DNA of 62,235 nt, filler included, from Dimargaris cristalligena (Eukaryota): the NCBI GenBank assembly GCA_003614675.1. It is 20 parts of 20 records of this genome, joined end to end, with 100 filler letters (N's around TTAATTAATTAA, not from the genome) between each part and the next. Parts side by side here need not be neighbours in the genome. Positions count along the whole stretch, not along the records: positions 59,242 to 62,235 come from ML004062.1; 19 more parts are not named here. One strand, written 5' to 3'. Positions 8,830 through 62,235 of the stretch are shown in pieces. Positions within the stretch are counted from its first letter, which is position 1. Every line of letters starts with the position of its first letter. Position numbers and translations under genes: made by a program. A model generated the notes under the pieces. The model saw only the letters and a list, made by a program, of their open reading frames with translations, was not told where the DNA came from and searched no databases.

Positions 8830-9051
8830 ATGCAGTTTACCTTGTTTTTCAAGGCCCTCCCCATTGCCATTGTCGCTCTTTTCGCTGTGGCCCAGGCCAA
8901 CCCCGTTAATGGCCATTCTGACAGCTCCGCCGCTCATGCCCAGGGGCTTTTCCGCCGTCAACTGGCGGGTGCAACTGCTTCGGTTGGAAAACGATTTGTA
9001 TCTTCAAAAGAGCCCATTTTTTGGCCGACCTTTTATCATAAACATCAATAG
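8830..9051 (+). CDS. Small secreted peptide precursor (73 aa) with signal peptide and RR/KR sites
   Basis: MQFTLFFKALPIAIVALFAVAQA|NPVN...GLFRR-QLAGATASVG-KR-FVSSKEPIFWPTFYHKHQ. TATAAA at ~8701, CCACCATG start context, AATAAA at ~9153. Confidence 0.7.
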   Translation: MQFTLFFKALPIAIVALFAVAQANPVNGHSDSSAAHAQGLFRRQLAGATASVGKRFVSSKEPIFWPTFYHKHQ

Positions 9052-18870: not shown

Positions 18871-19324
18871 AAAAGATAGATGAATAATAGAGAAAGGGAG
18901 AGAAGGTCCCAGAATATTGGATGACTAAGCAGAGGGAAAGAGAGGGGATTTCCCAGATAATAATATTAGTTATTACAAAGGATAGGTAATACTCAGGTAA
19001 CTAATAAATTTAATGTAATATAATAAAAGGGAAAAAGGGAAAGCTATTTTTAACTGTACTTTAAATTGGGGCACAATTGAGCCAGGGGTAGTGTGAATGC
19101 AAGGGTACAGTCTGGTCAGGGGCAGGAGTGCATTATAGTCAAGGGTATAAAAATATACTAATGGAAAAAATACTTTACTAATGAAAATGGAGGAAAAATG
19201 ACTATGCTTGTCAGGGGTAGGGGTAGGGGTGGGGGCTCATTCACTCATCAGGGGTGTACTTCTGATAAGTGCAAAAAAAAATATAAAAAATCAAAGTAGG
19301 TAAAAATATGGTAAGTTCACCACA
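18871..19324 (-). repeat. LTR family B, 5' part, inserted into LTR-A
   Basis: The minus strand begins TGTGGTGAACTTACC and abuts internal LTR-A sequence. Confidence 0.8.
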
Positions 19325-23667: not shown

Positions 23668-23988
23668 ATGCAGTTCCCCTCGCTCTTCAGGACCCTTCTT
23701 GTTGCGGCCGTCGTTATAGGTGCCACTGTCCTGGCCAGCGCTGCCTCTTTACCTCAGCCTGAATCCCACCTTCAGCGCCGGGCGGCTGGCCTTGAGCAGT
23801 CTATAGCTCGCCGCCATCCTGTACCTTCTAGCCCCACCCCTCCACCCAGCCCCAATCCGAATCCCCCTCCCGCTCCTCCACCGAGTCCCGTACCCACTCC
23901 CAATCCGTACCCTTCTCCCCCACCGTCTCCACTGGTCATATCCAAATCCAAATCCAAACAGGCCGGTGATAAGGGTCCCAATAAGTAA
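23668..23988 (+). CDS. Small secreted Pro-rich (extensin-like) precursor (106 aa) with two RR sites
   Basis: Signal MQFPSLFRTLLVAAVVIGATVLASA, then HLQRR-AAGLEQSIA-RR, a Pro-rich tract (PPPSPNPNPPPAPPPSP...) and a Lys-rich tail. TATAAAA at ~23496; CACCATG context. Confidence 0.8.
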   Translation: MQFPSLFRTLLVAAVVIGATVLASAASLPQPESHLQRRAAGLEQSIARRHPVPSSPTPPPSPNPNPPPAPPPSPVPTPNPYPSPPPSPLVISKSKSKQAGDKGPNK

Positions 23989-31207: not shown

Positions 31208-31262
31208 TGTGGTGAACTTACCACATTTTTTACCTACTTTTATTTTTTATCTATTTTTCGCA
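31208..31262 (+). repeat. LTR family B, 5' end at contig edge
   Basis: TGTGGTGAACTTACCACA, preceded by a second partial terminus TGTCGTGAACTTACTACA (31190-31207). Confidence 0.75.
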
Positions 31263-37662: not shown

Positions 37663-38604
37663 TTACACGGAAATGTCCTTTTTGCTGAGGCCCGTCGTCT
37701 TGGTCAAAAAGTCCAGATGTGGGCTAACGTGGGTGAAGAACGAGGTTTTGTCCCCGCTATCGCAGGAAATCTTGTCGCCGGGGTTGGTGCCGAAGCTGGT
37801 GATGCCCAATTGGACCCAGTTGCTCATGTACAGTCCCAGAAGTGGGCCGCCCGAGTCACCCTGGCAAGTTCCCTTGAAGTCGTTCTTGGCCGAACAAATG
37901 TAGGGACCGTTGGAATCCTTAAAGTCCAGTCCATCGATGAGGTCGCAGGCCTCGCGATCATTGGACAAGGCTAGATCCACCTCATACGGCGCGGGGTTGG
38001 CCGACTTTTGATTCTCCTGAGTCTTGCCCCAACCAATGACGCGCGAGGAGTCGTTGTCCTTGATTGTGCCCGTGTAGATCTTGATGGGTTGAATCTTGGC
38101 CGAGTAGACGAGAGGCGTTTCCAGTTTAATGAGGGCGATGTCGTTCACCGGCACGTCTTCCATATAGTAGTCAGGGTGGGCAACAACTTGGGAGATGTTG
38201 TAATTTGTCACGGTGCGAGGGTCCGCCGTGCCGATGGTGACATGGGTAAGGCCGGCTTTGTTAATGCTGCACAGTTTGAGGGAGTCGAACGAGTCAGGAC
38301 AGTCGACTACACAGTGCGCGGCGGTCATAATCCATTCGTTGCTCAAAACACTACCGGAACAAAGGGTGCTTTTGGCACCATTATACACCAACCGGGCCAG
38401 GAAGGGGTAATTGCTGGTGGCTGCCTGGCCACCGTAGACACGGGTAACGTCGGCGGCGGTCACCTGAGGTTGGTCACCAGAGAATACCCGGGGGGCCAGC
38501 TGGGCGGATGGGGTAGCCGGGGCCGCATACGTAGGGGTGTTGATGAGCAGCACTGAACTGGCCCAGAGAGCGGCCGAGGTGAGGGAAATGACGCGCAAGT
38601 ACAT
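37663..38604 (-). CDS. Secreted S1 (trypsin/chymotrypsin-fold) serine protease (313 aa)
   Basis: Signal peptide from MYLRVISL (ATG 38604), activation site R|VYGG, catalytic motifs TAAHC, DIAL and GDSGGP. Confidence 0.95.
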   Translation of the reverse strand: MYLRVISLTSAALWASSVLLINTPTYAAPATPSAQLAPRVFSGDQPQVTAADVTRVYGGQAATSNYPFLARLVYNGAKSTLCSGSVLSNEWIMTAAHCVVDCPDSFDSLKLCSINKAGLTHVTIGTADPRTVTNYNISQVVAHPDYYMEDVPVNDIALIKLETPLVYSAKIQPIKIYTGTIKDNDSSRVIGWGKTQENQKSANPAPYEVDLALSNDREACDLIDGLDFKDSNGPYICSAKNDFKGTCQGDSGGPLLGLYMSNWVQLGITSFGTNPGDKISCDSGDKTSFFTHVSPHLDFLTKTTGLSKKDISV

Positions 38605-40359
38605 GATTAAGCAAGGGGAGGGGCGAAGGGGAAGGAGGGTTACGTATATCGGAGGTTCCTGGGATTGGTTCAAAAAGGGGGATTACGCAATATAAAGCAA
38701 GGCCAAAGTGAAAAATGACTTTTCTGATTGTGTTTGATGCTGGAAAACCTCGTACTAAATACAATGCAACAGTGCAGGATGAAAACAATAAGTTGGTAAA
38801 CTGGGGCTGCGAAGGGTTGCCCATTTATACCATTTACAGATCCGTTCCGGTTACGAAACAGAGAGCCCTAGGCACAATACCCAGCCCATTAAGACGGGAT
38901 CGTACAGCCGTATGGCCCAGGGAATATTGGTAAGCACGGAATAAGGCAAAAGTAGTCTAGTCATTCCCTATATAGTGTAGTTGGCGGACAATAGGTTTCA
39001 TGGGAAAGGGGAGTGTGATATTATTGATGATCTCCATTCCGACCTTTTATTGTTAGTTAGCCAGGGGCTCCACTCAAGGGTGAAGGTCCCGCAGAAGAAA
39101 CGGATATTACAACTATTGGCTTACCAACATGGAAACGACTGGCCCATTGTTTAAACACCAAGTCCATCCTATTTGTTCTTGTTACTAGGCATTATACCTG
39201 GCAATTTCTTTTTGGATTATACAAAGTTCCGCTGAGTATACCCATACTAAAATCGCCACTGTCGTCGGAAAGCGATAGCCAGGGAGGGCTGGTCAGTTAG
39301 AATACTAATGGGGGCTAGAATCTTGTTCAAGTGGGTTTACTACTGCTCGTTCCTTACGAGTTCCCGTAATGCCTAAAACTTTGGCATGCATTGATTTTTG
39401 TCCCGGGTGCTGGCTACTGCAGGCAACATACTAGACAATCGGAAACGGTCATGTCTCTAATCCCACTAATTATCCGAATTTAGACCAACACCGTCATACA
39501 CATGCGACTCTTAACAAGAGAATGCCAAGTATATTCACTTCTTATACTCGGAGCGTGGCTGAGTTATTGTGCAATACCTTTGTTGGTTCCAGGCACGTCT
39601 ACTAATAGTGCAAATACCCAGGCTGGCAATGTCCTGTTTTAAAGGCAGCGGTAAGTTAGCTCACCGTGAGCATGTAGTGCCAATTTATCACTTTTCTTGC
39701 AATAAACGTAATTAGGTGCCAGTACCTAAAGTCGATGGGCAATAGTTCATATCCTAAGCTAGGAGCCCCAACGGCCCCATTTGGTCTAAAAATAAAGTTA
39801 CGCCAGATGGTATTGTGTAGGCATGAATTATAGATGCGTCCGTCAAAGAAGAAGTATAAAAGGTACATTATAACAAAATGATTATCATCATGTCAGAGAG
39901 ATAGTTTTGAAATTCCGATGCCGTAAGCCAAATCAGGTATACTTGTCAATTGGAAGATAGTCGAGAGGACAATAGCAATCGCAAGACAATAGTGCTTTGT
40001 TAATGAACTACCATAGGCTCATATAATAGTTTGCAAAACTTAGTTGGCCAACGTTCTAATCTAATGACCAGCGTATTTTACTGAACTGCCTCTTCTAAAT
40101 CGCGGAAATAGTAAATAGGGGTGACATCCAGCCTGGTTTATGTATGGTATAATGTGGGGTGGTGATTCATTCTAAACCAGGGACAGTTGCCTAATTCTAC
40201 CAGGTTTTTTTCGTTATAAAGCCTCGTTGAACTTCTTCTATACACAGTCAGTCGAAAACTAATTTACCTAAGAGCAACAACCGTTCCCCCGCAAACTTCT
40301 AGAAAAATAAAAATATGTAAGCCCGGCACTGTGGTGTCTAAAAAAAATCAAAAAAAGTT

Positions 40360-40712: not shown

Positions 40713-40984
40713 TTTTTAACTGTACTTTGAACAGGGGCACAGTCGGGCCAGGGGCAGTGTGAATGCAAGGGTATAGTCCGGTCAGGGGTAGGGGTGCATC
40801 ATAGTTAAGGGTATAAAAATATACTAATAGAAGAAATACTATACTAATGAAAATGGAGGAAAAATGACTATACTCGTTAGGGGCAGGGGTAGGGGTGTAT
40901 TCACTTATCAGGGGTATACTTCCTATAAGGGTGAAAAATATATATATATAAAAAAGTAGGTAAAAATGTAGTAAGTTCACCACA
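40713..40984 (-). repeat. LTR family B, 5' part, inserted into LTR-A
   Basis: The minus strand begins TGTGGTGAACTTAC. Confidence 0.8.
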
Positions 40985-41388
40985 CCAAGACTCTTTCAGC
41001 TCCCACGAGAGTCTTCCTAATGTGAAGTTATCTGGCTGGATTCTCATCTACTGATATCTTAGTCTTAGAAGTATTTCCCTTGGGACCTCCCTCTGGAGCT
41101 GTCCCTACATATATATAACCAGGCCCCACTGGGACTGGTTCAATTAAGAGCTTATTCATATCCCCCAGTTTACCTCAATAAACTCCATATATACTCATTC
41201 CCCCTTGTACTAACTAGTAAGTGTGCCTGCTGTACATCCCTGACATTTACCTGCATTATCCTTATTGGTTAGTATTATGCCCCCCTCCTAATGCTAGTAG
41301 CCCACTTGGCTGAGCCTAAGCCCCACCTACCATTAGAAGCCTATCCTCAGGACTCTTGATGGATGAAGAGTGGTTAACCTGGGTGACA
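40985..41388 (+). repeat. LTR family A, 5'-truncated
   Basis: Ends GTGGTTAACCTGGGTGACA. Confidence 0.85.
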
Positions 41389-46705: not shown

Positions 46706-46839
46706 TGTGGTGAACTTACCTCATTTTTTACCTACTTTTATTTTTTTATCTATTTTTCGCACTTATCGGAAGTATGCCCCTGACGAGTGAATGAGCCCCT
46801 GCCCCTGCCCCTGACGAGTATGGTTATTTTACCTCCATT
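46706..46839 (+). repeat. LTR family B, 5' end
   Basis: TGTGGTGAACTTACC; retains several CpGs. Confidence 0.8.
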
Positions 46840-48112: not shown

Positions 48113-48252
48113 AGTGACTTGTGATCCCACCTTGTCTCACCACCCCCCGCCTTTCTCTTTTTAAACCGCCTACTGCGCCGATCCTATCTGTGACTCTTCA
48201 CCGCATTATTCTCCCTTTCCCTTTTCGCCCTTCCATATTCTCTACCCACACC

Positions 48253-49629
48253 ATGTCGACCAAGAAACTCTGGGGTGGCCGTTTCACCGGTGCCACTGAT
48301 CCCCTGATGGACCAGTTCAACGAGTCGATCCACTTTGACCGTCGTATGTTCAAGGCCGATATCATGGGCTCCCAGGCCTACGTCAAGGCTCTCTGCAAGC
48401 GCCATATTTTGACCGCCGACGAGGCCCGCACGCTGGACCAGGGGCTTAGCGCCGTGCAGGCCGAATGGGAAGCCGGTACCTTTACCATCAAGGCCGGCGA
48501 CGAAGATATCCACACCGCCAACGAACGCCGGCTGGGTGAACTCGTGGGGTCGGTAGCCGGTAAGCTGCATACGGGGCGCAGCCGGAACGACCAAGTGGCC
48601 ACCGATATGCGTCTGTGGCTGCGCGACGCTGCCCGGGAGTTGGTGGAATTAACCCGCGACCTGGTCCGGAGTACCGTGGAGCGGGCCGAGGCGGAAATGG
48701 ACGTGCTCATGCCCGGGTACACCCATCTGCAGCGCGCCCAGCCTATCCGGTGGAGCCATTTCCTCCTCAGCTACGCCTGGAACTGGCAGCAGGATACCCA
48801 GCGGTTGGAACAACTGATTGAACGGTTCAACGTATTGCCCCTCGGCGCCGGCGCGCTAGCTGGTAATCCGTTTGAAGTGGACCGCGAGTTCCTGGCCCGG
48901 GAACTCGGGTTCCGCGACGTCATCCCCAACAGTTTGGTGGCCGTCGGCGACCGTGACTTCGTCTCCGAATTCCTCTTCTGGTGCAGTCTCACCATGATGC
49001 ATGTATCCCGGATCGCCGAGGACCTGATCACTTATAGTTCCAGCGAATTCGGCTACGTTTCGTTGGCCGATGCCTACAGTACCGGCAGTAGCCTGATGCC
49101 CCAAAAGAAGAACCCCGATAGTTTGGAGTTGCTGCGCGGTAAGTCCGGCCGCGTCTTCGGGTCCCTGTCTGGTTTTCTCATGACCGTCAAGGGTCTACCA
49201 AGCACCTACAATAAGGATCTGCAGGAAGATAAGGAACCCATGTTCGATGCCTATGACACCCTCCACGGCTGTCTCCAGATTCTGACCCGGGTGATTGCCA
49301 CTTTGAAAATCAACCCTGACCGTATGCGGCAGAGTCTGAGCCCCGATATGCTGGCCACCGATTTGGCCGAGTACCTGGTGCGTAAGGGGGTTCCTTTCCG
49401 CGAAACTCACCACATCTCCGGGGCGGCGGTGCGCATGGCCGAGGAACGTCAAGTGCCTTTGTCGAGCCTAACCGTGGCTGATCTCCAAACGCTGCACACA
49501 TCCTTTGCCGACGATGTCAGTGCCGTGTGGGACTACGAACGGAGCATCGATAACCGCTCCAGCATCGGAGGTACCAGCCGGAAAACGGTCGAGGCCCAGA
49601 TTGCCGCTCTGCAGAAATGGTTGGCCTAA
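48253..49629 (+). CDS. ARG4: Argininosuccinate lyase (458 aa)
   Basis: KLWGGRF, EDIHTANERRL, LHTGRSRNDQV, MPGYTHLQRAQP, signature GSSLMPQKKNPD, YNKDLQEDK. The real start is the ATG at 48253. Confidence 0.99.
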   Translation: MSTKKLWGGRFTGATDPLMDQFNESIHFDRRMFKADIMGSQAYVKALCKRHILTADEARTLDQGLSAVQAEWEAGTFTIKAGDEDIHTANERRLGELVGSVAGKLHTGRSRNDQVATDMRLWLRDAARELVELTRDLVRSTVERAEAEMDVLMPGYTHLQRAQPIRWSHFLLSYAWNWQQDTQRLEQLIERFNVLPLGAGALAGNPFEVDREFLARELGFRDVIPNSLVAVGDRDFVSEFLFWCSLTMMHVSRIAEDLITYSSSEFGYVSLADAYSTGSSLMPQKKNPDSLELLRGKSGRVFGSLSGFLMTVKGLPSTYNKDLQEDKEPMFDAYDTLHGCLQILTRVIATLKINPDRMRQSLSPDMLATDLAEYLVRKGVPFRETHHISGAAVRMAEERQVPLSSLTVADLQTLHTSFADDVSAVWDYERSIDNRSSIGGTSRKTVEAQIAALQKWLA

Positions 49630-50343: not shown

Positions 50344-51399
50344 GGGCTGGCCTACTTACACACCAACACCACAGCACCGAGCTTCCCTTATAATCTCGGC
50401 TACGTCGCCATATATGACAAAACGGTGTTGGACAAAACCGCACCTGTTGATGTTTTCGACCCCAACGTCAACCTGGTGATTGTATATGTAAAATCCGATA
50501 CCCTCCGCTGTCGCGATTTCCCAGCACTTCATAACCACCATTGTATCATGATCTCCTATCGGCGGGTCCACCCGCTTCTCGGAGTTATGAACCGGTATAA
50601 TATCAATCAGCCGATTCTGATGGACGACCGAGGGCGCGATGGCCACTACGCCCCTTTCCTGAACCTTCGGCTCGTCTTACTCGATAAAGATGGCCAGCCG
50701 GTGGACTTTAGCGTCATGCCCACGTCGAAAAAACGTGCCATCATCGCCGGCTCCGTCATTGGCTCTATCGCCTTTGTGGTTTTTTTACTCATTACCTATT
50801 TCGCCTACCGCCGTTATCAGTACAGTCGCCTTCTGGCTATGCGTCGTAGCCGTGGTATAGAAATGCTCGAAACGGGCCTTAAGCAGGGCGCCCCGGGCCC
50901 TCTGGACCCATTACTGTTGGAGTATTTACCCGTCATCAGTACCCCAAAACGAGCTCTGTCCTCATTGAAGCGGGCCACCCCCCAGGTGTCAAGTAATGAC
51001 GGCGAGGAACAGGTGGACGAAGATTTGGATCTCGGTGAGCGACGGGCCGCGCGGGCTCCCCAATTTGGCCTGGCGGCTGCCGTGGCCAGCTTGAGGAGTG
51101 GCATACGGCCCCTAATGGGCGAGTCCCACTGCCATTCTTCGGGGAATCGGAGCAAATCCGGTGGACCTAGTAGCGGTAGCGAAAGCAGGGGTGAACACTG
51201 CGCCATCTGTCAAGAAAGTATACGGGGAGGGCAAAAGATTCGGCAACTGCCTTGCCGGCACGATTTCCATGTAGCCTGCATCGACCAATGGCTTACGAAG
51301 AAGTCTTCCGTATGCCCGCTGTGTAAGCGGGACTGTGCCCTGCCATGTATAAAAAAAGCGGGGCCTGGTTTCTTACTTTATCAACGAACCAGCCGATAA
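50344..51399 (+). CDS. Single-pass membrane RING-H2 E3 ubiquitin ligase (PA-TM-RING/RNF13-like), last exon; 5' end unresolved
   Basis: TM AIIAGSVIGSIAFVVFLLITYFAY; RING-H2 C-AI-C...C-R-H-DF-H-VA-C-IDQWL...C-PL-C. A TAG acceptor at 50343 follows a CTGAC branch; in-frame donors exist at 50249 and 50087. Confidence 0.85.
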   Translation, partial: GLAYLHTNTTAPSFPYNLGYVAIYDKTVLDKTAPVDVFDPNVNLVIVYVKSDTLRCRDFPALHNHHCIMISYRRVHPLLGVMNRYNINQPILMDDRGRDGHYAPFLNLRLVLLDKDGQPVDFSVMPTSKKRAIIAGSVIGSIAFVVFLLITYFAYRRYQYSRLLAMRRSRGIEMLETGLKQGAPGPLDPLLLEYLPVISTPKRALSSLKRATPQVSSNDGEEQVDEDLDLGERRAARAPQFGLAAAVASLRSGIRPLMGESHCHSSGNRSKSGGPSSGSESRGEHCAICQESIRGGQKIRQLPCRHDFHVACIDQWLTKKSSVCPLCKRDCALPCIKKAGPGFLLYQRTSR

Positions 51400-53754
51400 A
51401 GAGCCTTTCAAGGCTGTACTATATTTAACATTTTATATTTAATTGACGTCGTATCTCGGTTTTGTGGGCTGGGATTGTTGAGCTATATTTACAGTATAAA
51501 ATTACCACATTTTTAATAACTGGTCCAATTGTAGTGGCACTGCCTTGTTTAACACCCCATATGGGCTATTCTAATACTTAAAGTCCATAGCGTATATGGT
51601 ATTCACGGTTCGTTACAATGAAATAAGGTCGCGGGTATATAGTTTAGTTCAGATGTTTTTCATCAGAAACAGGGGGTTGAATAAGAGTTTCCTATCAATA
51701 ATTCAGAGATGTGCGCTGATTAGGTCAGACTAAAATTGAGCTCAAGTATTGGGCGGCTATCGATGCTCCTGATAGCAGGGTGTTGTACATACTGTGGGGA
51801 TACCATCGACCCCCCTTCAGCCGTCTACTTGCCACGCTACACACCTATTATGAGGGTAAAGGGGCCGGGGTCGGTATATTGAGCCCAATTGGGTGTATGA
51901 TTGACTCCTTTAGCCTGAAACCAGGGGAGGGTCCAATTTCAGGAGTATGCATCTAAGCTGTTAAATATTTGTCGAAACCTAACAAGGGGGTCCCTCCTAT
52001 ACGAAGGCGTTCCATTCAGGTCAATCAGTTTATTAGAAGGGCATTGTTATTAATGCCCCATACAATAGAGGTCTAGTGCAAATATAGGTGCGGTTTGCTG
52101 TCTGATCCCGGCCATGGTTAGACTAGTTCGAGGTTTCACTGCTACAATAGTATAGAGCAGTTGGTGTGAGTAGGAAATTGTCCGCGTATTTCCGCATATC
52201 GTTGAATTTACTCGCCGGGATAAGCGCTGGGACTAAGTGGTACTAGACAATATCTCAGATGTGCAGCAGCAGCTCTTATTGTAAGATGTACGCATCCGAA
52301 TCAGGTAGTTTCCGATGGTGTTTGGCTCTGTTTAGGGCTTATGGTCTCAGTGAAGAGAATGGGGAGATGAGCAAGCCGCATTTTTGCTTGCCTTTCGGTA
52401 TAATGCTGGTGGTCTGACTTAGGTCCAAACATCGGAAGCACGTTGGGATGTTATCCGGTAGCCCATTACTGTGCTTGGTTGTACTTTACCCTGGCTTCAA
52501 GTGTGAAACCTTGTTTCTCATCGCTCGTTCGTCTTTTACCAGGCGATAATCACTTTTAAGGGGCATCTATTTTAAGACAGGACGCACTAGTGGTTCGCCG
52601 GTGATTTATTAATAGTAATTGCTCTAGAGATGCAGTCAAATGGGATAGCCGGGTTAAAGCTGTGGCCACGTCATTGAATTTGAATGACCTAGCCATGGTT
52701 CGTGCATTAATACTGTGCTAGTAACTGAAACCGACTAATTCAACAACCTGCTTTTACACTGACATTTACAAAGTAATTCAGCTGGCATTACATTATTAGC
52801 AAGGTAATATAGATAACGGGTTCAGATCCCCCACTAATTTATTACAACCTATTGTTTGACTTGGCGAAGCTCGGTAGTTTTATGTCCAACTAGGACCCCA
52901 TTATTCATACTAGCTCCTGTTTGGATACCATCGTCATAGTAGACNNNNNNNNNNNNNNNNNNNNNNNNNNNNNNNNNNNNNNNNNNNNTTAATTAATTAA
53001 NNNNNNNNNNNNNNNNNNNNNNNNNNNNNNNNNNNNNNNNNNNNAATTATTTGACTGGCTTTAGTCAAAACCATAGTCACTAACCACCATCAAACTACAT
53101 TTAAATATCTTAGGGCATACTTCCACGCTATTTTACCCAATTTCTACATTGCCTCCACCGTAACCAATATCGTTTTAAGATCCCTGGGACAACGGTCGCA
53201 GTGCCTTCTGTTCATTAATCTCCAACAGCCTTTTTATTGAGCCCACAGTGTGTATCCAGATCTAAGATTTTGGTTAACATGTGTAGGTAACTACGTATTA
53301 CTAGTAGGCATGTGCGAGCATAAAATTCAGGGGGCCCTTCATACATAATCCTAAGAGGCATTGTAGTTTTTGTAGAATGGGTCCACAAATATAATCCAGA
53401 AGGTCTGGTGTTTATGAAAGAGAAGCCTGCACAGTAATTAATGATAAGATGGTTGTACTATCTACTTATTTATCATCAGAATAGATTGGTGATTTAATCG
53501 GAAAACGTCTTAAACTGGATTGTTTGTTATGGTGCAGTTATGGCCCCAGATTAGTGGGGGACTTATGATGGAGTAGTGGCCCCTGCCCGAACACTCTGAG
53601 AAAACAGTTGAGTGGGAACCGTGCTCATTCATACTATTAATAGAAATAATGGGCAGATTGACATACTGCTCATATTTAATGGGGATTACGCATAGAAATT
53701 TTATTGATATGGATGTCTGATTGAGCATGCTAGGTAGGGTAAGGCCACTATGAC

Positions 53755-53976
53755 TTAATAAAATCGGGCCGAAGAGGAGTGGCAGGAGCTGGAAGGAGAA
53801 ACCGGTCTATTGGTGTTTATGATAAAAGGCCGGCCAACAAATGGGCTCTTTTTAAGATAAAAATTGTTTTCCAACCAAAACGGTTGCACCCGCCAGTTGA
53901 CGGGGTTGGCATGGGCTATAACGAAGAGAGCGACCATGGCAATGGGGAGGGCCTTTAAAAATGGGGTAAACTGCAT
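53755..53976 (-). pseudogene. Frameshifted paralog of the 8830-9051 secreted precursor
   Basis: Same signal peptide. A 52-bp deletion between CCGTTAA and CCGTCAA shifts the frame; the ancestral frame now has KR changed to KQ and a stop. Confidence 0.6.
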
Positions 53977-54599
53977 GGTGGATATAGTGGGAATTTGGGT
54001 AGGTGGAAAAAACAGAGTGAAATACATTGTAATGAACTGCTTTGGACGAAGTGTTAATGAGTGGATACTGCTACCTGAAGGGCGGGCTACCAAGTGGTAT
54101 TTATATTTTTCCATAAAGGGAGTATAGGCGGCCGCTGTTCATTAGATGGGTAGTTTAAAAAAACTGTCTCACTAGCTTCCCTACTATCCAGGCTGCTGTT
54201 CTCTGTTACAGTCATGTAGAGATATTTAGGTGAGATATGTTTTGGGAATGCCGTCCTGTCCTTCCAGCTCTGCCAATTGCACAATGACCACCTGGCCACA
54301 ACTGTTCAAGTTGATAATACAGAGATTTACATCTCGACTCTTTGGTGACAATTCTTGGATTATGAAGTAGATAATTTTTCGCTATTGTCTAGAAGCTTCA
54401 CCCCTCTTGCCCGTATTCTGCAAATCAGTCTATTTTAGCCAGCAGGATAACTGTAATATAGAATGTTCCACTATGAATGGATAAACGTGGTTAAGCCTAT
54501 TTCTCTCTGCTTTATTGAGAGAAAAGGAGAGAGAAAGTTGAAAATTTACCCTGTCTCTTTATCATTGCTACTATTGACTTTGCCATCCCCTCTTCCCCT

Positions 54600-55409
54600 A
54601 GTTGGCCCTTCTAATCTGACCTAATCCAGCTGGATAATTATCTGCCATATCAGGCCTTATAGTGCCATATTGAACCCCCTATGGTCACCCCCAGTACTAT
54701 AGGGACAACCATTATTATATAACCCCACTAATCGGGCTCTCTGGTATTTGCACTAATCACTCCACTGTCAATCTGAGGCCCCTTCCAGTTCCCATGGAAG
54801 TCTTCTCAATACAAGGACCACCTGGTCAGTTTACTCATTGATGGCTTACTTATATAGTTCCTCCCCTTGGGACCTCCTGTTGGAGTAGTCCCCTGTGTAT
54901 ATATAACTGGGCCCACTTGGACTGGTTAGGATCCTTAGCTTATTCATATTCCCTAGTTTACCCCTAATAAATATTGGAATACTAAGGACTTTAAAGGAAT
55001 TATAACTGGAAGAAAAGGAAGAAAGCAGCTAGAGGATGGTAGGTGCCTCTAGGTGGTTAGTTTTATTGAACTGTAATTTTTGATAGGGTAAAATATAAGT
55101 GCCTAACACAAACAATCTCATGATAGTAGAATAAACTAATGTAATTGGATAAAATAGGATAGGATAAATACTATGTAGCAACATACTCTTCAATAATAAA
55201 CAACTATATATGCTTATCCCCCTGTACTGACTAAGTAAGTGTGTACCACTACATGTCCCTGGCATAGTTGACTATGCTTGCTTTATTTAGTTAGTACTGC
55301 ACCCCTCCCTAACACTAGTAGCCTGCTTAGCTGAGTCTAAAGCCCACCAACCATTAGAAGCCTACTCCCAAGACTTTTGATAGACTAAGAGTGGTTAACT
55401 TGGGTGACA
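54600..55409 (+). repeat. LTR family A carrying a nested 224-bp element
   Basis: Homologous to 7625-8205 apart from the insertion. The duplicate lies at 57698-58507. Confidence 0.85.
54972..55195. mobile_element. Solo LTR family C (224 bp) with 5-bp TSD
   Basis: ATAAA|TATTG...CAATA|ATAAA. Absent from other LTR-A copies; duplicate at 58070-58293. Confidence 0.75.
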
Positions 55410-55732
55410 CTAATGGAGGACTATATTGAATGGTCTCTCAAAGGAAAGCCTCTGTACCCCCATCAGCCATAGACCTACTAGCACCTTATAAAGGACTATA
55501 AGGTACTGTGGAAGGAATGGACCCCCACCCACAAATGACTGCAGGCAATCAAGCTGTCACACTACAAAGGACCATAGAGATATACCCTGAAGATGCCCAA
55601 CTACAAAGGACCATGGAAGCACACCCCCCAACAACACCCACCCCCTCTGAGGATGAACTCAGAACCACCTGAACACAGCAATACATTGATGGACCAGTGC
55701 CAAACCATGGAGTACACATTTTACAAGGCTAC

Positions 55733-56042
55733 TGTGATGAACTTACCATATTTTTTACTTACTTTTATTTTTAATCCATTTTTCGCACTTATTGGAGGTA
55801 CGCCCCTGATGAGTGAATGAGCCCCTGCCCCTGATGAGTATAGTCATTTTTCCTACATTTTCATTATTATATTATTTTTCCTATTATTATATTTTATACC
55901 CTTAACTATGATGCACCCCTGCCCCTGGCCCAACTGCGCCCCTGTTTAAAGAATAGCTAACAATAGCTTTCTCCCTTTCTTTTTTCTCTTCTATTATTTC
56001 ACATTGAATTTATTGGTTACCCAAGTATTACCTATCCTTTGT
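55733..56042 (+). repeat. LTR family B, 5' part (duplicate at 58831-59141)
   Basis: TGTGATGAACTTACC start. Confidence 0.8.
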
Positions 56043-56852
56043 NNNNNNNNNNNNNNNNNNNNNNNNNNNNNNNNNNNNNNNNNNNNTTAATTAATTAANN
56101 NNNNNNNNNNNNNNNNNNNNNNNNNNNNNNNNNNNNNNNNNNAATTATTTGACTGGCTTTAGTCAAAACCATAGTCACTAACCACCATCAAACTACATTT
56201 AAATATCTTAGGGCATACTTCCACGCTATTTTACCCAATTTCTACATTGCCTCCACCGTAACCAATATCGTTTTAAGATCCCTGGGACAACGGTCGCAGT
56301 GCCTTCTGTTCATTAATCTCCAACAGCCTTTTTATTGAGCCCACAGTGTGTATCCAGATCTAAGATTTTGGTTAACATGTGTAGGTAACTACGTATTACT
56401 AGTAGGCATGTGCGAGCATAAAATTCAGGGGGCCCTTCATACATAATCCTAAGAGGCATTGTAGTTTTTGTAGAATGGGTCCACAAATATAATCCAGAAG
56501 GTCTGGTGTTTATGAAAGAGAAGCCTGCACAGTAATTAATGATAAGATGGTTGTACTATCTACTTATTTATCATCAGAATAGATTGGTGATTTAATCGGA
56601 AAACGTCTTAAACTGGATTGTTTGTTATGGTGCAGTTATGGCCCCAGATTAGTGGGGGACTTATGATGGAGTAGAGGCCCCTGCCCGAACACTCTGAGCA
56701 AACAGTTGAGTGGGAACCGTGCTCATTCATACTATTAATAGAAATAATGGGCAGATTGACATACTGCTCATATTTAATGGGGATTACGCATAGAAATTTT
56801 ATTGATATGGATGTCTGATTGAGCATGCTAGGTAGGGTAAGGCCACTATGAC

Positions 56853-57074
56853 TTAATAAAATCGGGCCGAAGAGGAGTGGCAGGAGCTGGAAGGAGAAAC
56901 CGGTCTATTGGTGTTTATGATAAAAGGCCGGCCAACAAATGGGCTCTTTTTAAGATAAAAATTGTTTTCCAACCAAAACGGTTGCACCCGCCAGTTGACG
57001 GGGTTGGCATGGGCTATAACGAAGAGAGCGACCATGGCAATGGGGAGGGCCTTTAAAAATGGGGTAAACTGCAT
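56853..57074 (-). pseudogene. Second frameshifted paralog of the 8830-9051 precursor
   Basis: Translation identical to 53755-53976. Confidence 0.6.
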
Positions 57075-59242
57075 GGTGGATATAGTGGGAATTTGGGTAG
57101 GTGGAAAAAACAGAGTGAAATACATTGTAATGAACTGCTTTGGACGAAGTGTTAATGAGTGGATACTGCTACCTGAAGGGCGGGCTACCAAGTGGTATTT
57201 ATATTTTTCCATAAAGGGAGTATAGGCGGCCGCTGTTCATTAGATGGGTAGTTTAAAAAAACTGTCTCACTAGCTTCCCTACTATCCAGGCTGCTGTTCT
57301 CTGTTACAGTCATGTAGAGATATTTAGGTGAGATATGTTTTGGGAATGCCGTCCTGTCCTTCCAGCTCTGCCAATTGCACAATGACCACCTGGCCACAAC
57401 TGTTCAAGTTGATAATACAGAGATTTACATCTCGACTCTTTGGTGACAATTCTTGGATTATGAAGTAGGTAATTTTTCGCTATTGTCTAGAAGCTTCACC
57501 CCTCTTGCCCGTATTCTGCAAATCAGTCTATTTTAGCCAGCAGTTTAACTGTAATATAGAATGTTCCACTATGAATGGATAATCGTGGTTAAGCCTGTTT
57601 CTCTCTGCTTTAGCGAGAGAAAAGGAGAGAGAAAGTTGAAAATTTACCCTGTCTCTTTATCATTGCTACTATTGACTTTGCCATCCCCTCTTCCCCTTGT
57701 TGGCCCTCCTAATCTGACCTAATCCAGCTGGATAATTATCTGCCATATCAGGCCTTATAGTGCCATATTGAACCCCCTATGGTCACCCCCAGTACTATAG
57801 GGACAACCATTATTATATAACCCCACTAATCGGGCTCTCTGGTATTTGCACTAATCACTCCACTGTCAATCTGAGGCCCCTTCCAGTTCCCATGGAAGTC
57901 TTCTCAATACAAGGACCACCTGGTCAGTTTACTCATTGATGGCTCACTTATATAGTTCCTCCCCTTGGGACCTCCTGTTGGAGTAGTCCCCTGTGTATAT
58001 ATAACTGGGCCCACTTGGACTGGTTAGGATCCTTAGCTTATTCATATTCCCTAGTTTACCCCTAATAAATATTGGGATATTAAGGACTTTAAAGGAATTA
58101 TAACTGGAAGAAAAGGAAGAAAGCAGCTAGAGGATGGTAGGTGCCTCTAGGTGGTTAGTTTTATTGAACTGTAATTTTTGATAGGGTGAAATATAAGTGG
58201 CTAACATGAATGATCTCATGATAGCAGAATAAACTAATGTAATTGGATGAAATAGGATAGGATAAATAATATGTAGCAACATACTCTTCAATAATAAACA
58301 ACTATATATACTTATCCCCCTGTACTGACTAAGTAAGTGTGTACCACTACATGTCCCTGGCATAGTTGACTATGCTTGCTTTATTTAGTTAGTACTGTAC
58401 CCCTCCCTAACACTAGTAGCCTGCTTAGCTGAGTCTAAAGCCCACCAACCATTAGAAGCCTACTCCCAAGACTTTTGATAGACTAAGAGTGGTTAACTTG
58501 GGTGACACTAATGGAGGACTATATTGAATGGTCTCTCAAAGGAAAGCCTCTGTACCCCCATCAGCCATAGACCTACTTGCACCTTATGAAGGACTATAAG
58601 GTACTGTGGAAGGAATGGACCCCCACCCACAAAGGACTGCAGACAATCAAGCTGTCACACTACAAAGGACCATAGAGATATACCCTGAAGATGCCCAACT
58701 ACAAAGGACCATGGAAGTGCACCCCCCAACAACACCCACCCCCTCTGAGGATGAACTCAGAACCACCTGAACACAGCAATACATTGATGGACCAGTGCCA
58801 AACCATGGAGTACACATTTTACAAGGCTACTGTGATGAACTTACCATATTTTTTACTTACTTTTATTTTTAATCCATTTTTCGCACTTATTGGAGGTACG
58901 CCCCTGATGAGTGAATGAGCCCCTGCCCCTGATGAGTATAGTCATTTTTCCTACATTTTCATTATTATATTATTTTTCCTATTATTATATTTTAGACCCT
59001 TAACTATGATGCGCCCCTGCCCCTGGCCCAACTGCGCCCCTGTTTTAAGAATAGCTAACAATAGCTTTCTCCCTTGCTTTTTTCTCTTCTATTATTTCAC
59101 ATTGAATTTATTGGTTACCCAAGTATTACCTATCCTCTGAANNNNNNNNNNNNNNNNNNNNNNNNNNNNNNNNNNNNNNNNNNNNTTAATTAATTAANNN
59201 NNNNNNNNNNNNNNNNNNNNNNNNNNNNNNNNNNNNNNNNNC

Positions 59243-59443
59243 CGCCGTGACATTGGTGAGGATCAGTTCCTTGTCCGTCGTGCAAAGAAAAACAAGGGTA
59301 GCAAGTCCAAGAATGCGGAAACGGCCGCCCCTCTGAACCGCCGTGACATTGGTGAGGACCAGTTCCTTGTCCGTCGTGCCAAGAAGAACAAGGGCAGCAA
59401 GAAGGGCAAGTCGGCCGAATTACCCCCGGCCCCTACCGCTTAG
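59243..59443 (+). CDS. 3' end of a Kex2-processed repeat protein (KEP), 96-bp tandem units
   Basis: RR-DIGEDQFLV-RR-AKKNKGSKSKNAETAAPLN-RR-DIGEDQFLV-RR-AKKNKGSKKGKSAELPPAPTA*. The four differences in the first 21 codons of the two units are all synonymous. AATAAA at ~59606. Confidence 0.8.
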   Translation, partial: RRDIGEDQFLVRRAKKNKGSKSKNAETAAPLNRRDIGEDQFLVRRAKKNKGSKKGKSAELPPAPTA

Positions 59444-61559
59444 TCCCTATTATCGACTGGTTCTCCATCATATATTATATTTATTTAACAGGGCTAGTCG
59501 TCACATTTGCCGTGCACCATTGTCAGTGGTCCCATTTCTTTGGACAATCCATCAGACATACTTAAATATCCATAAAGCCACCTTCTTGTGATGTCAATGT
59601 TGCCCAATAAATGCCGTATATACACACATATGCTAAGCAAAAGGCTTCTTAGTCCCTATTTACGATTGCTTGAAATGGGATTGTCACTTTGTATACAGTA
59701 ATTAGACACTTATGTAAGGATTGTGGAGCTTTTCTCCAGAAGAATTCTACTTGGGCTGATGATAAATCAGATGGATTGTTTATATATACGATGCTGGCCT
59801 ATTTCTGAAGAATAGCATCGTCTACTTAACCCAATAACCACAATACACGTGTTTTTGTCAGCCGTGGGCTGCTATGGGGGCATTGTGATTGGAATATAAA
59901 ACACTGTTGCGGATACGCGGGCATGCAGGGTCACGGATATTGTCAAATAGGCTTTGGGCTGCGTTGGTAAATTCCTGACTATACTGTAGGTAGAATTATT
60001 GTCTATGCATAGCTATAATCCACCACTAATTTCTAAAATATGTACACTATACTCACACTAATGTGTAATTCCCCTCTGACAAGCCATGATTGATTGCTAG
60101 CGGTTGATATCACATCCAGTCTATAGTTTATCGAGCAATCCTATGATTAGCTTGAGCATATTCTGTCGGCATCCAGCGTGACGATTTACATATTTATTAT
60201 TACTAGGATTAATAACTTACCATTATCTTGTCATCGATGTATTTCTATAACACTCGAACTCGCTTATAAAAGACAGTAGAATCCTGTGATGGGAACACAA
60301 TAGTTTTCTACTTATTGAAGTTCACATATTTCTGATACTATATTTATTTTTATGAATTAACTAATACCATGTTCGCTAGTATTTGTAGGTACTTTGGCAA
60401 TTGTATTTCTTTACTCCCTATGATTCTACCCAGCACCTTTGAGGCCGCCCCATCTGCACCCTCGAACAATCCTAGCCCTGTTAGTTAGGTACCCTTTATT
60501 GCCACGTCTAAACAACTGGAGAAGGAAGGCAAGGATGCTTCGCAGATCCCTAAACCTAGTGGTTTGAAGATGGAGTCAGCCAACTACATATACTAAGTTA
60601 TGAATAATCCCAAAGTGAAATTAAATAGTAGGACTGCTAGTATCTTAATGTGGAGGGCTGATGGATGGATGGTGATACCAGTTCATGGACGTGTACAAGG
60701 AAATTTGCCGGGGCTTTTTATTTGTGGCCCGTAAATGAAAATGCGCGTACGACCAGCCTCTCCCCCGAAGTTGCATAGGGTTGCCTTGCTTGGCCATCCC
60801 AAACCACCATTTAAGGACGGATGCCCTTTTACTAGAGAATGGTTAGTTGCGCCACCCTGCCCCTAGACCTACACACCCTAACCATACCCAAATTGTACCC
60901 CCCGTTTTTTACCAATGAGCCCTTAATCCTGAATACTTTGGCAATATCCCCTGATCTTGATCACTGTATTTTATGTATACTGTCAGAGTATAACCGGAGG
61001 TAGTTAGGCGATAAGAAACTGAATGGTACGGTGTAAAAAATGAGAATGCAGCATCAATGTGAAAATATAGGGACACTTGCCTAAACAGCCAATCCAGCCC
61101 TAATATGGTTGGGCAGTGCAGATCACATTTTACCCCACCTCCCCCTAATAGCTTTCACTGAACTCTAATTTGTTCCAATCTTCCCACTAGCTGCTACTGT
61201 CTTCAACCTCCTTTTCAAGGGCATGTCAGAATTGGGCTGGCAGGAATACCAGATGGGTTGTTTTATGCAGATTGGTTAACAGATGGCATAGTCAGAAGTG
61301 AGTTTGGAGGAATGTGGGTGTCTGAGGGAATGGGGGGGGGGGGGGGGGGTACAGTCTATGTATAGCCTTAGCATCCTAATTCTCCAATGCACTTTTACTC
61401 TTAGAATTATAGTTCCAGCTTTTTATGAAAGATTGGCCCATATTTAATGTGGGTACTAAGCTCAATACAGTGGGAGCCAATAAAGCAACAAAGGGGGCAG
61501 CAAGGTGGACTAGCATGGATAACTTCATTGTGTAGGATATATCACTGTGAATAGGGGGT

Positions 61560-62061
61560 TGTCAGCCCTCCTAATCCAACCTAATCTGGACCTAATGATC
61601 ATCCACCCTTGTTAGGCCTTACAGCACCATACCTACCCTCCCATGGTCACCCCTGGTACTATAGGATCATCATCTAGTATATAACCCTTCTCCTTCTGGC
61701 CCCAATGTTTTTCACCAAAACACTCAACCTGCTGATCCAAGACTCTTCTAGTTACTATGAGAGTCTTCCAGATACTAGTAGCTGTCCAGTTGGCCTATTT
61801 TTATTATATACCTTAGTTACCTGTAGTCTTCCCTTGGGACCTCCCTCTGGAGTCATCCCCATATATATATAACTAGGCCTCATTAGGATCAGTTAGATTC
61901 CTTAGCTTATTCTTACCCCCCTAGTTTACTCCAATAAACTCTACATATGCTCACCCCCTCATACTGACCAGTAAGTGTGCCCACTGAACATCCCTTACAT
62001 AACCAATCACCTAAGCCTTTATTAGTTAGTACTGTATCCCCTACCTGATACTAGTAGCCCG
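61560..62061 (+). repeat. LTR family A (3' LTR-like, purine tract upstream), interrupted by LTR-B
   Basis: GAATAGGGGGT|TGTCAGCCCTCC. Confidence 0.85.
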
Positions 62062-62235
62062 TGTGATGAACTTACCACATTTTTTACCTACTTTTATTTT
62101 TTATATATTTTTCGCACTTATTGGATGTACGCCCCTGATGAGTGAATGAGCCCCTACCCCTGCCCCTAATGAGTATAGTCATTTTTCCTCCATTTTCATT
62201 ATTATATTGTTTTTTCTATTATTATATTTTATACC
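62062..62235 (+). repeat. LTR family B, 5' part
   Basis: TGTGATGAACTTACC start. Confidence 0.8.

Follow-up and report, generated by a model that had tools for sequence, protein, structure and literature searches.

The stretch of Dimargaris cristalligena DNA that we analysed (62,235 nt, hereafter the window) consists of 20 pieces of 2,896-3,053 nt, with a GC content of 0.368-0.519 per piece, joined by 19 identical copies of an artificial spacer (N44, TTAATTAATTAA, N44). The last piece is a contig of 2,994 nt (59242-62235) that carries a repeat at its first bases. The spacer between this contig and the preceding, unrelated one (59142..59241) ends at 59241, so that no sequence to the left of 59242 can be part of the repeat gene. 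The repeat, which a preliminary description of this DNA had placed at a contig edge, thus lies at a true contig start (59242), right after the artificial spacer.

On the plus strand, the frame that opens at 59243 reads RR-DIGEDQFLV-RR-AKKNKGSKSKNAETAAPLN, RR-DIGEDQFLV-RR-AKKNKGSKKGKSAELPPAPTA, and then TAG (full translation: RRDIGEDQFLVRRAKKNKGSKSKNAETAAPLN RRDIGEDQFLVRRAKKNKGSKKGKSAELPPAPTA). The same two units, each made of RR, DIGEDQFLV, RR and a Lys-rich peptide, and the same stop had been read in the preliminary description, and we obtained an identical translation for 59243-59443. The C at 59242 is the last base of the codon preceding the first RR. This first dibasic site (59243..59248), whose P4 residue lies off the contig, is followed by copy 1 of the nonapeptide (59249..59275; charge -3), a second RR site in the context L-V-R-R (59276..59281), a Lys-rich 19-mer with a charge of +4 (59282..59338), a third RR site in the context L-N-R-R (59339..59344), copy 2 of the nonapeptide (59345..59371), a fourth RR site, again in the context L-V-R-R (59372..59377), a C-terminal Lys-rich 21-mer with a charge of +5 (59378..59440), and the stop codon (59441..59443). 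At the DNA level, this corresponds to a direct repeat of 63 nt (59243-59305 vs 59339-59401; 94% identity, spacing 96 nt), the tails that follow the shared 63 nt (33 and 39 nt) having diverged. The repeat is absent from the list produced by Tandem Repeats Finder, probably because it comprises just two copies, whose tails have diverged. The bacterial-style ORF list gives other frames (59343-59591, +, and 59263-59409, -) at this place, confirming that another frame had been called; the RR frame is missing from it because its start codon is off the contig.

The DNA that lies 3' of the stop codon (59444..62235) is AT-richer (GC 0.413). The longest stop-to-stop frame that is wholly 3' of the TAG measures 81 aa, two longer listed frames entering from the repeat, and no neighbouring gene informative on function was found among the stop-to-stop frames of these 2.8 kb. 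A run of 18 G is present at 61332-61349, outside the coding part of the contig. The last bases of the contig belong to a repeat element of about 175 nt that is dispersed over the window; its 7 copies (85-96% identity) lie at 62062-62235, 58831-58998, 55733-55900, 40810-40985, 19144-19324, 46706-46839 and 31208-31262, in several cases at the end of a contig, and this element is probably one cause of the fragmentation of the assembly. Elsewhere in the window, the contigs at 53045-56042 and 56143-59141 show 98.8% identity along a length of 2,994 nt and represent alleles, haplotigs or a recent duplication, and a third contig (6304-9351) is 86-92% similar to them over about 2 kb. Four ORFs of the window that have no introns correspond to a cytochrome P450 (16195-17778, -), a protease of the trypsin type (37666-38682, -), argininosuccinate lyase (48118-49626, +) and a protein with a RING finger (50344-51396, +).

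The two units differ at four positions of the shared segment (59263 T/C, 59284 A/C, 59290 A/G and 59299 T/C). In agreement with the preliminary description, all four are silent third-position changes, and they are synonymous in the RR frame only. The same differences alter residues in four of the remaining five frames (in frame 2 through one or two of the four differences, in the others through three or four); in reverse frame 0, the residue is unaltered at one of the four sites and altered at three. When four substitutions were drawn at random in 200,000 trials, all were silent in a fraction of 0.0017 if any change was allowed and of 0.0046 if three transitions and one transversion were imposed. 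The RR-frame ORF has a GC content of 0.576 and a GC3 of 0.652, as compared with a GC content of 0.413 in the remaining 2.8 kb of the contig and with values of 0.545-0.588 (GC) and 0.598-0.724 (GC3) in the four larger coding ORFs of the window. The four synonymous differences out of four, together with a GC and a GC3 similar to those of the other genes of the window, show that the RR frame is coding and under purifying selection.

We searched for homologues of the 66-residue fragment. A phmmer search against 1.84 billion representative sequences yielded one match, P0002 (E 4.4e-24, 83% identity), and no second one at E <= 0.001. P0002 is a partial hypothetical protein of D. cristalligena that is cut inside unit 1 by the end of its contig, which therefore breaks in the same repeat as ours. 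A complete D. cristalligena protein of 104 aa, P0003, was found in the 90% cluster of P0002, and a second one of the same length and species, P0004, came from a further homologue search. In an alignment of these proteins (A1), identity to P0004 is 92% for the window fragment and 86% for P0003. None of 79 candidates scored at E <= 0.01 when homologues of 117-2000 aa were sought. One metagenome scan gave 598 pattern matches, none of which was confirmed by tblastn; a second one, with a degenerate DNA pattern of the nonapeptide plus RR, gave 0 matches. No Pfam family reached its curated cutoff (best E 0.033); hits to RecO_N (E 0.5) and to DUF1381, SH2 and Coagulase (E 0.03-0.15) were discarded as sub-threshold noise. 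A sequence search of the PDB returned 0 matches at E <= 10, and the best feature score in the ESM Atlas, which yielded no structure model, was 0.82, below the level of 0.9 used for leads. Tblastn of a full-length homologue against the window disclosed neither a second copy nor the missing 5' end on another contig, the only hits being look-alike signal peptides of other small ORFs. By these sequence comparisons, the putative repeat-precursor family is confined to the genus Dimargaris in the data searched. Our literature search for papers pairing Kex2-processed repeat proteins with Dimargaris found none. The product had been presented as possibly undescribed; this holds only in part, since relatives, although uncharacterised, had already been deposited as hypothetical proteins of D. 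cristalligena.

The complete homologues gave access to the part that the window lacks. P0003 and P0004 start with MHSASFIKAFIVAAM[AV]LSAVAQA, a segment with a Kyte-Doolittle hydropathy peak of 2.67 (residues 9-21) that AF2 models as a helix (residues 3-22). It ends in A-Q-A, to which we applied the -3/-1 rule for the ends of signal peptides. On the grounds of hydropathy, the modelled helix and this ending, the N-terminus is signal-like. The lack of a signal peptide upstream had been named in the preliminary description as an observation that would speak against its reading; in the homologues P0003 and P0004, the N-terminus is, on the contrary, signal-like, which favours that reading. It is followed by a pro-piece of 15 residues, NQSNTSVLPEGSSLM, with two N-x-S/T N-glycosylation sequons, and then, in this order, by RR, nonapeptide, RR, 19-mer, RR, nonapeptide, RR and 21-mer. 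All four RR pairs are invariant in alignment A1 (LMRR, LVRR, LNRR, LVRR). In the nonapeptide, columns G3, E4, Q6, L8 and V9 are invariant, L8 doubling as P4 of the next RR site, and the aromatic residue is F or Y depending on the homologue. Conservation is highest in the Lys-rich 19-mer, where 18 of the 19 columns are invariant. The mature part is devoid of Cys, and the mature precursors have a net charge of +9 to +11 and a pI of 10.3-10.8. The AF2 model, built from an alignment of only 4 sequences, has a mean pLDDT of 55.8, with values of 50-55 past the signal helix; the mature part is thus without a confident fold and apparently disordered.

Compared with the complete homologues, the window gene is short of only about 38 codons, i.e. 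the signal and the pro-piece. From the sequence, 59243-59443 would therefore make up the 3'-terminal two thirds of a gene with about 104 codons, which is possibly one unit longer. The preliminary description had proposed that more units lie upstream. This was not borne out, since the two complete homologues (2/2) each contain two units and no more, and the search for longer forms came back empty, the only hints to the contrary being the base at 59242 and the sequencing depth. As 59242 is a C, the first RR cannot be preceded by the ATG (Met) of the homologues; the base equals the C of the AAC (Asn) codon that precedes unit 2, and the RRDI codons are identical in units 1 and 2. There is possibly, then, a third unit or a different end of the pro-piece upstream of 59243.

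Six sequencing runs contain the stretch, five of them with half of its words or more, and none is recorded as RNA. We compared the contigs of four runs (X1, X2, X3 and X5) over 59242-59941. The summed word depth at 59290-59409 is about 5-20 times that of the 3' flank in these four runs, a ratio that is not a copy number. Such a high depth over the repeat is a hint of several gene versions or several units. At least three gene versions (P0003-like, P0004-like and window-like) with two units each already make about six units. The break of the contig is more likely to have been caused by a small family of near-identical units than by a long array. One contig each in X1, X3 and X5 extends before 59351, by 205-255 further letters, with a loose end before a GEDQ unit. 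The last 30 letters of these extensions, read by hand, encode EGSSLMRRDI, the end of the pro-piece in the homologues, after which comes GEDQ. The organism that carries the window's DNA therefore has a signal/pro-piece context linked to a unit. Yet, the codons used for RRDI in these extensions differ from those of unit 1 in the window, indicating that they are not simply its missing upstream part.

We considered the possibility that the open frame arose by chance in a non-coding tandem duplication, or that it is an artefact of assembly at a contig end. The locus does lie at a contig end, in a fragmented and repeat-rich assembly, and the runs assemble the repeat region from many short variant contigs. 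Neither version accounts for substitutions that are exclusively synonymous or for a coding-like GC3 in the RR frame; furthermore, the protein homologues (82-92% identical to P0004 in alignment A1) stem from other assemblies and keep the frame and the stop, and the junction between units 1 and 2 is spanned in the divergent run X5 by a contig of 141 letters (record 23). We hold this explanation to be hardly credible and, as far as the sequences can tell, effectively refuted. We consider the locus to be a real and conserved gene, coding for a small and probably secretory repeat precursor whose putative kexin sites are near-ideal.

These putative sites conform to the pattern described as preferred by Kex2, with Leu or another aliphatic residue at P4, Lys or Arg at P2 and Arg at P1 (bioRxiv 10.1101/2020.05.27.120113). 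Leu occupies P4 at 4/4 sites in P0004, 4/4 in P0003 and all 3 visible sites of the window, although these 11 of 11 sites go back, by duplication and homology, to no more than 3-4 independent ones; by comparison, 2 of the 15 [KR]R sites present in the four larger ORFs of the window have an aliphatic P4. [quoted passage not shown] The product would, with a similar degree of likelihood, be a small, Cys-free secretory pre-pro-protein, its secretion and its cleavage being inferred, like any activity of the peptides.

The proposed course of events would be as follows. The signal peptide would direct the precursor to the endoplasmic reticulum, leaving a short pro-piece that bears the two N-glycosylation sequons. 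A Kex2-type kexin of the Golgi would cut after each L-x-R-R, and a Kex1-type carboxypeptidase would trim the terminal Arg-Arg, as occurs in the alpha-factor pathway. The predicted products are two nonapeptides D[IV]GEDQ[FY]LV, one 19-mer [AS]KKNKGSKSKNAETAAPLN and one C-terminal Lys-rich 21-mer. A survey of 250 fungi mentions only a few lineages lacking KEX2, and those it names do not include Zoopagomycota (PMC6339444). Dimargaritales are described as parasitising other fungi through appressoria and haustoria (PMC9866270). For a haustorial parasite of fungi, it is plausible that the peptides act outside the cell, either between hyphae or where parasite and host meet, and this way of life suggests, without showing it, a role at the haustorial host interface.

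The resemblance to KEPs lies in the signal-like N-terminus of the homologues, in the short repeats between RR sites and in the fact that most of this small protein is repeat. The surveys of Le Marquer et al. 2019 (PMC6339444) and Umemura 2020 (PMC7329392) look for repeated peptides between KR, RR or KK, which we found here as two units of RR-9mer-RR-19/21mer. The nonapeptides cover 18 and the units 66 of the 104 residues, where Le Marquer et al. state a threshold of at least 15% of the protein (PMC6339444). Both surveys, according to their stated rules, require at least three repeats (PMC6339444, PMC7329392), and a precursor with two units, as seen here and in the two complete homologues (2/2), consequently falls outside these rules. 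[quoted passage not shown] Neither the search of the 1.84 billion representatives nor the further homologue search revealed sequence similarity between the family and any non-Dimargaris protein. The KEP reading of the preliminary description is partly supported (RR-bounded coding units, a signal-like N-terminus in the homologues, Leu at P4), but not as to the number of units, of which only two are seen. As it stands, we see in this gene an uncharacterised precursor of a known kind and not a new mechanism.

The prepro-alpha-factor of Saccharomyces (MFalpha1/MFalpha2) consists of a signal peptide, a pro-piece with N-glycosylation sequons and tandem units cut at dibasic sites, and is encoded by more than one gene version per genome. 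The Dimargaris precursor is similar in having a signal-like N-terminus (in the homologues), a pro-piece with sequons, tandem dibasic units and more than one gene version. It differs from alpha-factor in that its sites are RR rather than KR, it has no X-Ala/X-Pro signature of Ste13, and no link with mating is known. The predicted peptides start with DI, GI, DV, AK or SK, which are not the dipeptides that the rule given in PMC6339444 assigns to Ste13. Each Dimargaris unit would yield two peptides because it contains two RR sites. The same survey cites some alpha-pheromone precursors with fewer than three repeats (PMC6339444). A further comparison is with effectors of the K2PP type, which likewise have an L-x-x-R or dibasic site past a disordered pro-piece (bioRxiv 10.1101/2020.05.27.120113). 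Unlike these, whose cargo is a folded and often Cys-rich domain, the Dimargaris protein would release short peptides only, with no folded cargo.

The nonapeptide and the repeated layout also call to mind a precursor of ribosomally synthesised peptides of the ustiloxin/dikaritin type (RiPP), in which the nonapeptide would be the core. A signal peptide and repeated short cores between dibasic sites are indeed the ustiloxin-type arrangement as outlined in PMC7329392. However, no ORF capable of encoding a DUF3328/UstYa protein is found in the 2.8 kb downstream, where the longest wholly downstream frame has 81 aa, there are only two cores, and their aromatic residue is F or Y among the homologues. 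We therefore take the nonapeptide to be very unlikely to be such a core.

The main rival to processing by kexin is that the protein is secreted and acts uncut, as a small, disordered and strongly basic effector whose KKNK stretches would be NLS-like or bind polyanions in or on the host fungus. Its net charge, its pI above 10 and its predicted disorder would fit such a role, and RRAKKNK agrees with K-K/R-x-K/R, the classical NLS pattern. Dimargaritales feed by means of haustoria (PMC9866270), and SP7 of Rhizophagus irregularis, a protein with repeats bounded by [KR]R, has been described as acting in its native form in the nucleus of the host, although whether it acts as a whole protein or as peptides is left unsettled in that source (PMC5293756). 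The SP7 family is a parallel in that it comes from an early-diverging fungus with a biotrophic interface and comprises small secreted hydrophilic repeat proteins with conserved [KR]R borders (PMC5293756). It is reported as specific to Glomeromycotina (PMC11333574), no sequence similarity to the Dimargaris proteins was found, and its host is a plant, whereas that of Dimargaris is a fungus. Four invariant RR sites, each with Leu at P4, would be superfluous in a mere basic patch, and sites exposed in a disordered chain would encounter the kexin of the Golgi. We thus regard action of the uncut protein as unlikely, though less so than the other alternatives.

Coming back to the kexin-processed precursor, two further ideas on its products can be judged from their composition. 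The preliminary description had suggested that the nonapeptide is an acidic spacer neutralising the cationic peptides. This does not fit with the strongly positive net charge of the mature part (+9 to +11, pI >10), nor with the first nonapeptide of P0004, GIGEGQYLV, which has a charge of only -1. An antimicrobial peptide should be cationic and, in addition, amphipathic or hydrophobic enough to insert into membranes. The Lys-rich peptides have a charge of +4 to +5, a helical hydrophobic moment of 0.05-0.09, a GRAVY of -1.28 to -1.55 and a hydrophobic fraction of 0.21-0.26. Peptides this hydrophilic and lacking amphipathicity are unlikely to act by lysing microbes and do not resemble amphipathic, membrane-active ones; the case for a cationic antimicrobial role is a weak one at these values.

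Two other small ORFs of the window have a related layout. One (23668-23988, +; 106 aa) has a signal-like N-terminus, followed by HLQ-RR-AAGLEQSIA-RR-, a long stretch rich in Pro and an end rich in Lys; like the 59243 repeat, it has a piece of 9 residues enclosed by two RR sites whose P4 is aliphatic. It has a homologue in D. cristalligena, P0006, with 87% identity. BLASTP of P0004 against this ORF gave no alignment, so that the layout is alike while paralogy is without support. The other (8830-9051, +; 73 aa) has a signal-like N-terminus that is identical to that of the repeat family at 13 of 27 positions and ends in AVAQAN. Past the signal, it reads GLF-RR-QLAGATASVG-KR-FVSSKEPIFWPTFYHKHQ, making it a second candidate for a small precursor with dibasic sites. 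Variant copies of it at 57074-56979 (-) and 53976-53881 (-) diverge right after the signal part.

A further-reaching reading, which we put forward as speculative and quite unlikely, is that the peptides, once released, act as an extracellular signal peculiar to this lineage, either directed at the mucoralean host at the haustorial interface or serving as a ribosomal peptide pheromone, and encoded by a small, fast-evolving family of variable copy number. We know of no mating signal described for this zygomycete lineage. If this reading were true, the Lys-rich peptides would, in the host-directed version, bind to or enter the mucoralean host, and short-read assemblies would keep breaking such a small, fast-evolving family.

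The finding bears on the way in which such precursors are looked for. Precursors with two units and perfect L-x-R-R sites are excluded by rule from both published KEP screens, which ask for at least three repeats, and this constitutes a blind spot. Peptide precursors are almost unstudied in early-diverging fungi, and nothing is known of how Dimargaritales communicate with their fungal hosts or manipulate them. The present family is tiny and restricted to one genus in the data searched, and its predicted products are exact: two nonapeptides and two Lys-rich peptides.
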